32,000 nucleotides of DNA from Schaalia odontolytica (lineage in GTDB: Bacteria > Actinomycetota > Actinomycetes > Actinomycetales > Actinomycetaceae), in NCBI RefSeq assembly GCF_005696695.1, contig NZ_CP040006.1:330001-362000 (forward strand), written 5' to 3'. A model generated the notes under the pieces. It was not told the DNA's origin, did no database searches, and saw nothing but the letters and a program-made list of their open reading frames with translations. The first letter of the stretch is position 1, and every line of letters starts with the position of its first letter. Made by a program: the position numbers and the translations under genes. This document shows, piece after piece, positions 1 through 15,151 of this stretch.

Positions 1-1730
<1,730 letters not shown>

Positions 1731-1772
1731 TCGCTGGCGCTTGCTCTGCTGAGTAGCGCTGATTGAGCGCGG

Positions 1773-1813
1773 CGAGGCCGCGGCCGGGAAACCGGTCGCG
1801 GCCTCGTTTCGTT
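1773..1813 (+). terminator. intrinsic terminator after ppdK
   Basis: GC-rich hairpin cgaggccgcggccgg / ccggtcgcggcctcg (1773-1806) followed by TTTCGTT. It begins ~43 nt after the ppdK stop. Confidence 0.7.
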
Positions 1814-2088
1814 GTGGGTGCTGTGTGGTGTTGCTTGTGGCCCCACGGGTGTTCCGGGCGCCGGAGGGCCCGGCCGCCCGCGAGGCTAGGCGGCCTCACT
1901 TCGTTCGGCGCCGCGCCTCGAAGCCCGCCCGTGCCCTCCGGTCCCTCCGGCGCCCTCCACACCAGTGGTTCCTGGCCGCTGATGTGTGGCTTGGCGCGTT
2001 GTCTCGTCGTCCGGCCAGGCCCTGCTGCCGCCCGTGGGCATCGCAGGGGTCTTGCGCGCTGCGATTTCTGGCCGTTCTCTTGCGTGTT

Positions 2089-2269
2089 GTTACAAACGTC
2101 GTCAATCGGCGGTGTTTTTCGCGTGGATTTCTGATCCGTTGTTACAAACGTCGTAAATCCGACGGCTTTTTCGCTGAAAATAGTGGTTTTTGGGAGCAGA
2201 TTGACGACGTTTGTAACAGAAGTCCTCGGAAGGGCTTTCAAATTGCTCCGGTTTGACGACGTTTGTAAC
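2089..2269. repeat. repeat family A: four copies of GTTACAAACGTCGT(C/A)AA, two forward and two inverted
   Basis: Forward copies at 2089-2107 and 2141-2159; reverse-complement copies at 2199-2217 and 2251-2269. Start-to-start spacing is 52, 58 and 52 bp. The spacers between copies are unrelated. Confidence 0.9.
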
Positions 2270-2357
2270 GGATATTGCCCACGGGTGCCGCGGCCGGGCC
2301 GCACCACTGCCCGCGGGCGCCGCGGCCGGGCCCTGTTGGATAGGCGGCCCGGTTGTC

Positions 2358-2602
2358 TGAAACCCCTGTCGCCTTTGCTCGTGCGTGTTTGCGAGGGTTT
2401 GAAACCGCCATCGCCTTTGCGGGCGCAGATCGAGCCGTAACTGAAACCGCCATCGCCTTTGCGGGTGAGAAATGGGTGTTTTTGGTCCAGTTTTCGGGTG
2501 CAAAGGTGTTGTGGGTTTCAAGACGCAGACCCGGGCTTGTCGCAGAGGCGTTGCGGGTTTCAAACGTCACCTCAAGGCCTTGCGCAGGCATCGGCGGCTT
2601 CA
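2358..2602. repeat. repeat family B: six copies of bipartite TGAAACC-N7-CCTTTGC, three forward and three inverted, 42-bp phasing
   Basis: Forward TGAAACC at 2358, 2400 and 2442, each followed after 7 variable nt by CCTTTGC. Inverted copies are GCAAAGG-N7-GGTTTCA at 2500-2520, GCAGAGG-N7-GGTTTCA at 2542-2562, and a degenerate copy ending GGCTTCA at 2596-2602. Confidence 0.88.
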
Positions 2603-2640
2603 GGCGGCGCGGCCGTCCACATCCAGCGGACGTACAGCAA

Positions 2641-2666
2641 CGCCCCGCCCGAAGCCGGGCGGGGCG
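2641..2666 (-). terminator. GC hairpin downstream of CPBP paralog 1
   Basis: Perfect 11-bp stem cgccccgcccg-aagc-cgggcggggcg, ~16 nt past the stop at 2683 on the minus strand. There is no clear U-tract, so termination efficiency is uncertain. Confidence 0.5.
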
Positions 2667-2682
2667 TCACGGCATCCAACAA

Positions 2683-3507
2683 TCAGACGTTCTGCAAAGC
2701 TCCCTGCATGGCGAACATCAGGCCCACCATGATCGAGTTATTGAGCGCGTGGAACAGCCACGAGTACGCCACGTTCTTCCCGGACATCACGTACACGAGC
2801 GTCAGGACGATGCTGATGGGCAGGTATGTGAAGAAGTCCTGCCACTGGTGAGAATGCATGTACGCAAACAGCGCCGCGGAGATTGAAGCGACGAGCCACG
2901 TCGGCGCGTATGCGCTGAGCTTGCCGATGAGGATGTGGCGGTAGAAAATCTCCTCGACCATGGGCACCCCGATGGCGACGAAGAAGCAGAAGATGAGTCC
3001 CGTGCCGCCGTCAAAAATTGCGTTGATGACGGCCTGCTGGTTATCGGCGACCGGCGGGTTGAGCCCGTAGAGGGCGATGCGGGTCGCGGCCTGGACGATG
3101 ACGACCAGGATCCACAGGCCGAAAAGCAGCAGGACCTTCAAGAAGGGGCGCGTGCGCAGATAGGAAAACGCGGGGAAAAACTCGCGCGAAAAAAGTGCCA
3201 GGACGATGATCAGGAAGACCGTGTCGACAGCGAGATTGATGGCCGTCAGGTTCCACGACTCGGGGAAGAGGAACATGGGAACGGCGCCCAGCAGGAAGAA
3301 CGCGGCGTAGGGGATGCCGAAGATCGCGATGCGCACCCAGTCCGCGCGGGTCGGGCGCTCAGGGGACGAGGCCGGGACTGCCTCGCTCGAAACAGCCTCG
3401 CCGGGCAGGGGGAGGGGAGCGGTGGACACGGGGCCCTGCGGGCCTGTGTTCGTCACGAGAGAATCTGCCGCCTCGCTCAGGGGCTGTGTATTCGGGTTGG
3501 TTGCCAT
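2683..3507 (-). CDS. CPBP family intramembrane glutamic endopeptidase (CAAX protease/Abi-like), paralog 1
   Basis: Has the three CPBP motifs: EEIFYRH (EExxxR), FAYMHSH (FxxxH) and FHALNN (HxxxN). Multiple hydrophobic helices and a Pro/Ser-rich ~65-aa N-terminal tail. The ATG at 3507 aligns with the paralog start. Confidence 0.88.
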   Translation of the reverse strand: MATNPNTQPLSEAADSLVTNTGPQGPVSTAPLPLPGEAVSSEAVPASSPERPTRADWVRIAIFGIPYAAFFLLGAVPMFLFPESWNLTAINLAVDTVFLIIVLALFSREFFPAFSYLRTRPFLKVLLLFGLWILVVIVQAATRIALYGLNPPVADNQQAVINAIFDGGTGLIFCFFVAIGVPMVEEIFYRHILIGKLSAYAPTWLVASISAALFAYMHSHQWQDFFTYLPISIVLTLVYVMSGKNVAYSWLFHALNNSIMVGLMFAMQGALQNV

Positions 3508-3662: not shown

Positions 3663-4463
3663 CTAGACGAGGGACCTGACAATGAGCATGATCGAGTTGT
3701 TCAGCGCGTGGAACGTCCACGAGTATGCGACGTTCTTCCCGGACTTCACGTACACGAGCGTCAAGACGATGCTCAGCGGCAGGTACATGAAGAAGTCCTG
3801 CCACTGGTGAGAGTGCATGTACGCAAAAAGCGCCGCTGAGATCGACGCGACGAGCCATGTGGGCGCGTACGCGCTGAGCTTGCCGATGAGGATGTGGCGG
3901 AAGAACATTTCCTCGATGACGGGCACTCCAATGCCGACGAAGAAGGTGAAGACGATGCCGAGAGCCCCGTCATTCAGAAGGTTCATGACCTGCTGCTGGT
4001 TTTCGGCAATCGGTTGGTTGTGTCCGTAGAGGGCGATGCGGGTTACTGCCTGAATGGCGGTGACCAGGAACCATAGGCCGAAGAGGAGCGCGATCTTGCG
4101 TACGGGCCGCGTGCGCAGGTAGGTGAAAGCGGGGAAGAACTCGCGCCAGAAGAATGCGAGCGCCATGATCAGCAAGATGGTGTCGAGCCCGATGTTGATA
4201 GCGGTCAGGCTCCACGATGCGGGGAAGATCCATGTCGGCACTCCCACCAGGAAGAACGCCGCATAGGGGATGCCGAAGATCGCGATGCGCACCCAGTCCG
4301 CGCGCGTCGGGCGCTTGGGGGACGAGTCCGTGGCCGCCTCGCTCGAAACCGATTCGCCGGGTAGGGGGAGGGGAGCGGCGGACACGGGGCCCTGCGGGCC
4401 TGTGTTCGTCACGAGAGAATCTGCCGCCTCGCTCAGGGGCTGTGTATTCGGGTCGGTTGTCAT
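3663..4463 (-). CDS. CPBP family intramembrane glutamic endopeptidase (CAAX protease/Abi-like), paralog 2
   Basis: Motifs EEMFFRH, FAYMHSH and FHALNN. The track ORF extends to 4604. The ATG at 4463 (MTTDPNTQPLSEAADSLVTNTGPQGPV) aligns residue-for-residue with the paralog 1 start and is preceded by GGAAGAGGAAACC. Confidence 0.85.
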   Translation of the reverse strand: MTTDPNTQPLSEAADSLVTNTGPQGPVSAAPLPLPGESVSSEAATDSSPKRPTRADWVRIAIFGIPYAAFFLVGVPTWIFPASWSLTAINIGLDTILLIMALAFFWREFFPAFTYLRTRPVRKIALLFGLWFLVTAIQAVTRIALYGHNQPIAENQQQVMNLLNDGALGIVFTFFVGIGVPVIEEMFFRHILIGKLSAYAPTWLVASISAALFAYMHSHQWQDFFMYLPLSIVLTLVYVKSGKNVAYSWTFHALNNSIMLIVRSLV

Positions 4464-4486
4464 GGGTGGTTTCCTCTTCCTGTCGA

Positions 4487-4514
4487 AAATTAGACCGCCC
4501 GAATATTTTGTCAG
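4487..4514 (-). promoter_or_regulatory. candidate promoter of CPBP paralog 2
   Basis: The minus strand reads CTGACA-N16-TAATTT, ~25 nt upstream of the start codon. Confidence 0.3.
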
Positions 4515-4678
4515 ATCTTGACCTGATGGGGTGGGCGTGTGGTTGAACTGTGAGACATTAGAAATCCTGGATATTGCGCCACTTTTATGGCATCGTGTCA
4601 GCAAGCGATCATCCTGGGTCCTTAGTCCCTCAACGGGGCTATGTCCCCGCGCTAGGCACCGTCACGGCATGGTCACAA

Positions 4679-13647: not shown

Positions 13648-13714
13648 TGAACGAGCAGTTGATACGTGGATGGGCCTGGGATGGGAAATGCTTGGTGCAA
13701 GGGTCAACCTGATC

Positions 13715-13802
13715 GGGAACATTCAACCTGATCGGGAAGATTCAACCCGATCAGAAGAGGTTGAACCTTACCGATCGGGTGTAACGCCTCATCGGTAACA
13801 AG
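13715..13802 (+). repeat. left copy of an ~88-nt direct repeat flanking the endonuclease cassette
   Basis: Contains 18-nt tandem units (tcaacctgatcgggaaNat) followed by two hairpins (ttcaacc...ggttgaa; ttaccgat...atcggtaa). About 4 mismatches to the copy at 15064-15151. One extra 18-nt unit lies at 13704-13721. Confidence 0.9.
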
Positions 13803-13885: not shown

Positions 13886-15064
13886 ATGTTTTCCACAGGG
13901 GCAGCCGTTCTAGGTGAGGTACTTTCGTCGTGCTGCGATCATCCACATATGAGTGACAATCAGCTGACCGTTATTCGTTCATCGTCGGGCTGTCGAATTC
14001 CTCGCGATATGCAAGATACATGCGTGTATCTACACATCATGAAGGGGTGCTACGTACGCGTCGACGATGCTCAATTCCTGAGTTCGCGATGGGCTGTCTG
14101 GGAAGCCGTGTCACGAGCACGACTGTTGGCTGTGCAGCATGCGGGGAGTGAAGATCGTGTCTTCATCGGAGCCAGTGCGCTCGTTGCTCGAGGTATTCCG
14201 TTGTGGGAAGCGAACCCCGATGTTTGCGTCTGGGCTCCTTCGCGGCGTGGGCACAAATCGCTGCGCGCAGTCCAAGCGGAGGCTGTTCGGGTGCCTGCCG
14301 TCTCGGTCCGGTGGAGCGTCGTGCCACCCAATGCGCCGGAGCTTGAGCAAGTAGAGGGCATCACCGTCGAAGGAATCGTTGATGCTGGAGTGCGCATGGC
14401 TCTCTTCTCTGAACACTTAAGTGCCTTCGTGGCGCTCTGTATGCTGCTCAATCGGCAGTCGCAATTTTCAGTGTTTACGCAGGACGTGGACCGGCAACGT
14501 TCGGATTCTCTGCGGGAAAACATGCTGGCAAGGCTCGAAGAACGTGCGACAGACAAAGAAACTATCCCCTTCCGGAGAGCTAAACGCCTGATAGCCGCCG
14601 CTGACCCGGGCTGCGAGAACCCTGCTGAGGCCGCTCTTCTGTGGGTGGTGAAGTCGGTGAGCGCGTTCGAGGTCGTGACCCAGTTTGAGATCGTCGTCAA
14701 CGGGAGGCGTTATTTTGCGGACATCGCTATTCCGGGACTCATGATCATCTTCGAGTTCGATGGGATTGGAAAGCTTGGAAAGAACGAAGCCGACTTCGCT
14801 CGGGCGAAGCGTGACTGGATCCAGCGCGAAAACGACTTGCGTAGTGCCGGCTGGACCATCTATCGATTCTCGTGGCCAGATTATGAGGATCTGGCGCAAC
14901 TGAGGTCCTTGGTAAGTGAGCTGTTGGGGCCTTTCCAATCCGTGATCCCATCCTCGGCTCAGGGCCTGTGGGCGAAACCCTCGCCGGCGTGTGATGGACC
15001 GGAGCGTCGGTTCCATATGGCTGCCAATCGTTGGGGAACCGCGCGAGAGGATTACACCCGTTAG
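13886..15064 (+). CDS. DUF559/Vsr-like (PD-(D/E)xK fold) endonuclease-domain protein
   Basis: The C-terminal block ENPAEAALLW...YFADIAIPGLMIIFEFDGIGKLGKNEADFARAKRDWIQRENDLRSAGWTIYRFSW matches the pattern of actinobacterial DUF559-type proteins. Visibly AT-richer than its neighbours. An alternative start is ATG 13949 (MSDNQL...). Neither start has a clear RBS. Confidence 0.7.
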   Translation: MFSTGAAVLGEVLSSCCDHPHMSDNQLTVIRSSSGCRIPRDMQDTCVYLHIMKGCYVRVDDAQFLSSRWAVWEAVSRARLLAVQHAGSEDRVFIGASALVARGIPLWEANPDVCVWAPSRRGHKSLRAVQAEAVRVPAVSVRWSVVPPNAPELEQVEGITVEGIVDAGVRMALFSEHLSAFVALCMLLNRQSQFSVFTQDVDRQRSDSLRENMLARLEERATDKETIPFRRAKRLIAAADPGCENPAEAALLWVVKSVSAFEVVTQFEIVVNGRRYFADIAIPGLMIIFEFDGIGKLGKNEADFARAKRDWIQRENDLRSAGWTIYRFSWPDYEDLAQLRSLVSELLGPFQSVIPSSAQGLWAKPSPACDGPERRFHMAANRWGTAREDYTR

Positions 15065-15151
15065 GGAAGATTCAACCTGATCGGGAACATTCAACCTGAT
15101 CAGAAGAGGTTGAACCTTACCGATCGGGTGTAACACCTCATCGGTAACAAG
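15064..15151 (+). repeat. right copy of the ~88-nt direct repeat
   Basis: Begins at the last base of the cassette gene's stop codon (TAG 15062-15064). See the left copy. Confidence 0.9.

Follow-up and report, generated by a model that had tools for sequence, protein, structure and literature searches.

What kind of element is the array of six bipartite boxes that lies between two convergent genes in the genome of Schaalia odontolytica, and does it belong to this site alone? The array was analysed within a stretch of 32,000 nt (hereafter the window). A comparison over 1.4 kb gave 99.9% identity between the window and LLVT01000001.1, the record of S. odontolytica XH001 (PMC12369343), in which the region is placed near 960-990 kb. 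The six-box array is one copy of an abundant intergenic modular palindromic repeat and not a one-off regulatory site.

A sequence-only reading of the window had described six copies of TGAAACC-N7-CCTTTGC, three forward and three inverted, in exact 42-bp phase. Exact matches on the + strand start at 2358, 2400 and 2442 and an exact match on the - strand spans 2500-2520, while the remaining - strand boxes, at 2542-2562 and 2582-2602, carry one and three mismatches, respectively. When up to three mismatches were allowed, the sole match outside the array in the 32-kb window was an unrelated one at 27551. These seven matches compare with 1.38 +/- 1.13 in 100 dinucleotide shuffles, none of which reached seven, confirming that six copies in a 3 + 3 arrangement are far above chance. 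Start-to-start spacings were 42 and 42 bp for the forward boxes and 42 and 40 bp for the inverted boxes; five copies thus keep the exact 42-bp phase, from which the degenerate sixth departs by 2 bp. The five N7 cores had been listed correctly, and the proposed symmetry about ~2481 agrees with a centre at 2463-2499 whose midpoint is 2481.

The array occupies part of a 950-bp gap flanked by the 3' ends of two convergent genes, one of which, ppdK (3..1730, +), is a pyruvate phosphate dikinase-type gene according to ORFs and Pfam matches. As the array lies between two 3' ends, it is not in a promoter region. The features of this gap are as follows.

1731..2682, + strand: intergenic repeat island between the convergent ppdK and CPBP/Rce1-like (2683..3507, -) genes (ORFs and Pfam)
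1773..1806, + strand: terminator-like hairpin after ppdK, CGAGGCCGCGGCCGG / CCGGTCGCGGCCTCG, then TTTCGTT (inverted repeat and direct reading)
1836..1968, + strand: module H, a GC-rich long palindrome with 31-nt arms (inverted repeat)
2086..2272, + strand: module A, two forward and two inverted GTTACAAACGTCGTCAA units with a period of 52 and a 39-nt centre, GCTGAAAATAGTGGTTTTTGG
2273..2357, + strand: conserved A-to-B linker with two copies of TGCCCRCGGGYGCCGCGGCCGGGCC and the motif GGCCCGGTTGTC preceding B (direct repeat)
2358..2462, + strand: module B left arm, boxes 2358-2378, 2400-2420 and 2442-2462 with 21-bp linkers between them
2463..2499, + strand: module B centre, GGGTGAGAAATGGGTGTTTTTGGTCCAGTTTTCGGGT, 37 nt, directional, setting the orientation of the element
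2500..2602, - strand: module B right arm, boxes 2500-2520, 2542-2562 and 2582-2602, the last degenerate
2504..2521, no strand: 18-bp recombination overlap (BLAST junctions and L002 sequence)
2640..2667, - strand: terminator-like hairpin of the CPBP gene, ACGCCCCGCCCG / CGGGCGGGGCGT (inverted repeat)

The neighbouring family A array, which had been credited with the same forward-then-inverted logic, is real, with forward units at 2088 and 2140, inverted units at 2199 and 2251 and a period of 52. A motif of the A centre, AAATAGTGGTTTTTGG (2178-2193), recurs in the B centre as AAATGGGTGTTTTTGG (2470-2485). Modules H, A and B of the window are all co-oriented, as they are at other loci. The forward units of family A (2097-2111 and 2149-2166) additionally form a small terminator-like hairpin followed by T5 on the + strand only, a polarity that agrees with that of the island. 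Directly downstream of the island, the CPBP/Rce1-like genes at 3663-4604 and 2683-3507 are tandem paralogues with ~82% DNA identity over 839 bp.

The distribution of the repeat was examined by scanning one genome per species with a query of two phased boxes, which yielded at least 120 loci. Among the matches listed, 107 were in Actinomyces, Schaalia or Pauljensenia (Actinomycetaceae) assemblies, a count that includes assemblies labelled Sanguibacter and Xylanimonas, and 13 were single chance matches without arrays in unrelated phyla. Single genomes held at least 11-16 repeat loci, and no copy was found inside a called gene at more than 100 loci. An identity as a locus-specific iteron, partition or operator array is contradicted by this abundance and by the position between convergent 3' ends. 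The motif is scattered genome-wide, an outcome that the sequence-only reading had named as damaging if the scatter were random, but the scatter is not random. Many copies were present in NZ_JVOJ01 ('Sanguibacter keddieii 250_SKED'; L015, L023, L046 and others) and NZ_JVKM01 ('Xylanimonas cellulosilytica 352_XCEL'; L045, L059 and others). The flanks in both are 90-95% identical to the window over 5-7 kb, and their species labels, judged by this identity, are probably wrong.

A rigid common geometry was observed in 116 elements, each consisting of n forward boxes, a centre and m inverted boxes, with a 42-bp phase in either arm. An arm has between one and six boxes, and the commonest form is 2 + 2 (51 of 116). 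The step across the centre, between the innermost forward and inverted boxes, is 58 bp in 115 of the 116 elements, and the centre is 37 nt long in the same proportion. The centre is rich in A/T tracts and has the directional consensus GGGTGAGAAATGGGTGTTTTTGGTGCGTTTTTCGGTT, so that the element has an orientation. Each unit comprises a 21-bp box (TGAAACC, seven variable bases, CCTTTGC) and a 21-bp linker; the linkers are of a few recurring types shuffled among copies. The box consensus differs consistently between the left arm (TGAAACCGCCATCGCCTTTGC) and the right arm (GCAGAGGTGATGnCGGTTTCA).

Module B is generally part of a composite island, located 3' of genes, in which module families H, A, B, G, C and others follow one another in the order H-A-B-G and so on. 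In most A-B composites elsewhere, the end of A is separated from the start of B by 88 bp, as compared to 85 bp in the window (2272 to 2358), and the A-to-B linker is conserved in non-orthologous copies too. Family G (CGCGAAAAA(A/G)(C/T)TCGCCC, 42-bp period) follows B in most loci, starting ~22-26 bp beyond it. No other island module is as widespread or as well conserved as H, which is present in most loci with 90-97% identity to copies at many non-orthologous loci; families C, D and E provide further modules after or before. An apex motif, G(C/G)TGA(A/G)AA-N7/8-TTTTGG, is common to families A, B, C and G. Related families with a 19-bp period occur in L006 (CTGGATAGG) and at 13704 and 15064 of the window. 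Module maps indicated that nearly every module is oriented like B and that inter-module linkers are conserved; what is repeated is therefore an island, polar and non-coding, that is made up of palindromic modules and has a length estimated from these maps at ~0.7-1.5 kb. Where G or B copies have centres of unusual length, the cause is degenerate units and not nested insertion. A further convergent-gene gap in the window, at 29913-30023, contains ~110 bp of unrelated sequence; the same gap is filled by a 1.2-kb island (modules G, B, D/E and C) in L103:5745-6953, L111 and L072.

Comparisons between strains revealed that these islands are labile. At the window's site, two B-type modules separated by 858 bp are present in L002, L003 and L005; the first of these matches the left arm and centre of the window array, and the second its last units. 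The 3 + 3 copy of the window is, as read from these junctions, a recombinant of two modules; its symmetry is a product of this recombination, which also accounts for the poor pairing of partner cores in the window. Three forward A units are present in L002 and two in the window, and strains with an identical CPBP protein differ inside the island. Orthologous islands exhibited 77% identity as compared to 96% for the flanks in L090/L120, and 90% as compared to 97-99% in window/L002. Islands diverge faster than the flanking genes, unit numbers shift by unit-length gain and loss, and modules recombine with one another. In L006 (1-1052, 1749-3338) and L007, which have an identical CPBP gene, window position 2631 is joined to 15283 in inverted orientation, producing a 12.7-kb inversion that contains the two CPBP genes, an FTR1 iron-uptake cluster, an ABC transporter, ApbE and a DUF559-like gene. 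Both breakpoints are in repeat islands, and these carry H-like modules in opposite orientation. The array is missing from this junction in L006 and L007 because of the inversion, so these strains do not provide the absence from sister strains that had been proposed as grounds for dismissing the array. Many metagenome contigs end at islands, and the ends of the contigs examined for strains lacking the DUF559-like gene likewise fall at repeats.

If the array worked as an RNA scaffold or cruciform, the N7 cores had been expected to covary between partner copies. The consensus arms are complementary. Compensatory changes were at the level of the shuffled controls (paired cells, 90.0% versus 90.2%; covariation score, 0.115 versus 0.117), and the RNAalifold covariation term was only -1.67 kcal/mol. 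Partner cores paired at 5.33 of 7 positions, non-partner cores at 5.28 and cores of different elements at 5.30. At the most variable core position, pair types equalled the product of the marginals; at polymorphic core positions G.U was about as frequent as A.C, and conserved mismatches were present (e.g. T.T at the fifth base of the outer box). Since the N7 cores vary without covariation between partner copies, a selected RNA or cruciform fold is not supported. TGAAACC/GGTTTCA was invariant in all four boxes of 79 copies, including the arm left free by the search pattern, and the 7-bp core and the linkers varied; this invariance looks more like sequence recognition than structure.

The two strands nevertheless differ greatly in folding. 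Mean RNA minimum free energy was -83.4 kcal/mol for the forward strand versus -52.5 kcal/mol for the opposite strand, the forward strand being the more stable in 79 of 79 copies; the corresponding values for the window copy were -135.3 and -110.4. The differences between the arms, both in the consensus and where fixed, are all G.T on one strand and not A.C. The better-folding strand has 36% G and 30% T, and the opposite strand is C-rich and weakly structured. Orientation was compared with that of neighbouring genes on the basis of crude gene calls. Between tandem genes, 17 of 19 copies of the main family were co-oriented with the genes (raw 17:2), a bias of ~10-11:1 after orthologous loci were collapsed by hand and of 7:3 under an automatic collapse that over-merges loci. 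Only one of 21 collapsed sites lay between divergent genes. Copies within a single 136-kb contig had the orientations + + + - -, which argues against orientation being set by replication direction.

The array is very probably one of the many copies of an intergenic repeat, modular and palindromic, that is specific to the Schaalia/Pauljensenia group. Our best reading is of a BIME/BOX-like mosaic repeat, selfish or neutral, that may act as a sense-strand 3' hairpin; taken as a whole, with repeat identity, behaviour and putative 3' role together, this explanation is favoured with modest confidence. The sense strand alone would provide transcripts with very stable, G.U-rich long hairpins; as with REP/BIME, BOX and Correia elements, their effect could be to protect 3' ends or to insulate them. 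A role at the transcript level is the best single guess because folding is asymmetric in favour of the sense strand and copies tend to follow co-directional genes. Any such action on the sense transcript of the upstream gene is proposed tentatively, at a level somewhat short of probable; the alternative to function is persistence as selfish or neutral repeat DNA.

The most serious competitor is an array that binds protein as double-stranded DNA, in which each 21-bp box would bind one protein and the arms would be bridged into a nucleoprotein complex, possibly with the A/T-tract centre as a bendable segment and a nucleoid-associated, gyrase/IHF-like or end-pairing character. This explanation is kept alive by the invariant boxes, set against variable cores and linkers, together with the lack of covariation. 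It is also consistent with centre A/T tracts ~10 bp apart and with the periods of 42 (B and G) and 52 (A). As to the helical phasing put forward for the 42-bp period, these periods are indeed near multiples of 10.5 bp, but two related families have 19-bp periods and phasing is therefore not general. Moreover, the two blocks of a box are 14 bp apart and so face different sides of the helix, several box families would each require their own protein, no candidate protein gene adjoins the arrays, and the strong single-strand asymmetry would be left unexplained. We consider protein binding of this kind unlikely as the main explanation.

Foreign genes are found at some modules. A 2.1-kb cassette encoding a LysR regulator and a YeiH/Cons_hypoth698 transporter (L120:2326-4558, L143:3349-5530) interrupts a family-A apex, reading GCTGAAAATGG at the left boundary and AAACGG followed by TGGTTTTTTGG at the right; the apex is intact in L090:~400-470. 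The same cassette with identical ends occupies an unrelated intergenic site in L140:3790-5915, L141 and L142, where the left flank ends AAAATTGG. AAAAT(T)GG stands at the end of both targets and AAACGG at that of the cassette, a pattern that looks like site-specific insertion 3' of AAAAT(T)GG; a circular junction, if formed, would read AAACGG followed by TCGTTACC. The cassette contains neither a recombinase nor a module and has no obvious duplication. The nearest named homologues of its LysR protein, at 72-74% identity, are in other actinobacterial genera, and unnamed metagenome proteins are 84-99% identical. Additionally, homologous DUF559/Vsr-like genes with low GC3 occur among modules at three independent sites. 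In the window, ORF 13886-15064 has a GC3 of 0.61 as compared to 0.86-0.94 in its neighbours, and its C-terminus resembles DUF559/MTES_1575 (Vsr-like nuclease). This ORF is flanked by a ~100-bp direct repeat (13704-13800 and 15064-15150) in which 19-bp TCAACCTGATCGGGAACAT units precede two short inverted repeats; this module family is present also in L120 and L143, and the layout resembles a Campbell-type integration at a repeat module. The DUF559-like homologues (29% identity, E 2e-25) in L079:399-1766 (orthologues in L089 and L123) and L119:2192-3085 lie between B-type modules or beside H-like modules; the L079 gene is inside a 2.6-kb stretch with five B-type modules, of which four have spacings of 220 or 304 bp. 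When separated arms were searched for an intervening transposase, only a DUF559-like gene and the LysR/YeiH cassette were found.

These insertions could mean that modules are working recombination platforms, with the conserved apex (GAAAATGG...TTTTGG) as a site-specific target that captures foreign cassettes and with islands as breakpoints of programmed or frequent rearrangement. A recombinase or nuclease, possibly the DUF559/Vsr-like proteins embedded among the modules, would drive the capture. The exact splitting of a family-A module at its apex in L120 and L143 would fit, as would the low-GC3 genes at three sites, one of them with ~100-bp direct repeats. Split modules were nonetheless rare (one of ~21 for A and none of ~88 for B), no linked recombinase was present, the second target of the cassette is not a module, and breakage at a palindrome apex followed by end-joining could look the same. 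Capture and rearrangement of cassettes as the business of these islands is accordingly rated improbable. If true, it would amount to an integron-like gene-capture system in Actinomycetaceae, of which we know of no described case.

Mobility was also considered in the form of a MITE mobilised in trans, whose arms would be subterminal arrays of transposase-binding sites with TG...CA tips. Arrays of transposase-binding sites occur at the ends of Mu, Tn7, Tn552 and IS21. The repeat is multi-copy and dispersed, its terminal inverted repeats consist of inverted copies of one 21-bp site starting TG, and a whole island present elsewhere is missing at 29913-30023 of the window. Comparison of this gap with L103, however, revealed a replacement without clean boundaries and not a clean insertion. 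No target-site duplication was visible at the ends of B or A, where the flanks are conserved linkers, and neither a target-site duplication nor a clean empty site nor a linked transposase was found at the copies examined. B is not an independent unit, since A, B and G lie at fixed distances with conserved linkers, and unit number varies freely. The ~1 Mb of DNA around the copies contained no autonomous element or transposase with such ends, those of an IS3-like element in L029 being unrelated. A MITE origin is very doubtful. Least credible of all, and highly improbable, is the processing of single-stranded DNA hairpins by an HUH enzyme (RAYT or IS200/IS605-type), as for REP/REPIN, which would suit the strand-specific folding, the G.T pairs that DNA hairpins tolerate and the insertion of the cassette 3' of a short specific sequence without obvious duplication, but which is opposed by the mixed orientations in one 136-kb contig, arguing against a link to a single replication strand, and by the lack of any Y1 transposase near copies in the stretches examined.

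Several other identities were examined and rejected. A CRISPR array was discounted as orientation switches at the centre and the 21-bp linkers are of few recurring types, not unique spacers. For an iteron origin or partition site, the location between the ppdK and CPBP 3' ends, the number of loci per genome and the lack of a plasmid or phage match were decisive. Integron attC sites were rejected because the only cassette insertion observed is at the apex and not at the hairpin base, the cassette carries no module and no integrase was seen among the flanking genes examined. The centre contains an ATG (ORF 2472..2732, 86 aa) and 42 is divisible by three; a coding function was rejected because families A, C and G lack the ATG, the period of family A is 52 bp and the variable positions of the box show no wobble bias. 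The layout of n forward and n inverted boxes is not accounted for by nested self-insertion at the apex, since cores of partner rank match no better than others. Likenesses to a parS half-site (TGAAAC), to IS3/IS6110 terminal repeats (TGAACCGCC...) and to Mu ends are coincidences of 6-9 nt, the half-site order also differing from that of Mu. A plasmid or phage origin was rejected as BLAST against plasmids and phages gave no match, and matches in IMG/VR were either coding repeats or B/G modules near the stretch ends of contigs with 64-65% GC that are probably host DNA.

The view that no annotated element class has this geometry was borne out by these plasmid and phage searches, by Rfam and by the literature. 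Rfam gave no relevant match over 1500-3000 at E<=10, and at the gathering score over 14 sources only tRNAs and one ALIL pseudoknot. Full-text keyword searching brought up no account of repeats of this kind in Schaalia or Actinomyces, nor are they mentioned in the paper on the XH001 transposon library. As REP, MITE, CRISPR, iteron/partition and attC elements each have defining features that are lacking here, the arrays are classed as interspersed mosaic palindromic repeats, apparently of an undescribed family.

What appeared to be a local 'regulatory array' is thus a member of a large and apparently undescribed repeat superfamily of Schaalia, Pauljensenia and oral Actinomyces. S. odontolytica XH001 is the model host of the TM7x epibiont. 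The islands break short-read assemblies, provide both breakpoints of at least one inversion (12.7 kb) and coincide with places of foreign-gene insertion. Since unit number differs between near-identical strains, strain typing is a potential use. If a function were established for the conserved boxes or the sense-strand hairpins, they would represent an actinobacterial counterpart of REP/BIME biology and a way into chromosome organisation or the processing of RNA 3' ends in an organism for which genetic tools are few.

The closest parallels are with BIMEs, extragenic mosaics of REP hairpins that vary in copy number and prefer 3' ends and convergent genes; BIME-1 consists of two inverted REPs around an IHF site. 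Like BIME/REP elements, the present repeats are multi-copy, extragenic and outside coding sequence, are mosaics of a few box and linker types and have inverted arms around a conserved central motif; as for BIMEs, copy number varies, 3' ends and convergent pairs are preferred and transcripts would form stable hairpins. This likeness to REP is one of features. The REP unit is an imperfect palindrome of ~35 nt in alternating orientation, whereas the box is not self-complementary and the arm units are direct repeats with a fixed 42-bp phase; in addition, the present repeats have one apex motif common to several box families, form polar islands and belong to the Actinomycetaceae. A hallmark of REPINs is a cognate RAYT (Y1 HUH) gene in the genome, usually flanked by REPs. 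No RAYT is known here, and the few ORFs scanned with Pfam in ~8-kb stretches around matches included no Y1 transposase. Correia elements (CREE/NEMIS) of Neisseria also combine inverted arms, a central bendable or IHF-type region, many intergenic copies and transcript hairpins, but are of defined length, duplicate a TA target and have a single inverted repeat at each end; none of these traits was seen here. The BOX elements of Streptococcus pneumoniae (boxA-boxB(n)-boxC) are similarly modular, intergenic and dispersed, with a variable count of ~42-45-bp internal units, partly complementary ends and a stable RNA fold; in BOX the repeated unit lies between two different end modules, whereas here the units form both arms around a non-repeated centre. 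The mycobacterial MIRU-VNTRs are purely direct tandem repeats without an inverted arm or centre, and share with the present islands the character of actinobacterial intergenic arrays whose unit number varies between strains and can be used for typing.
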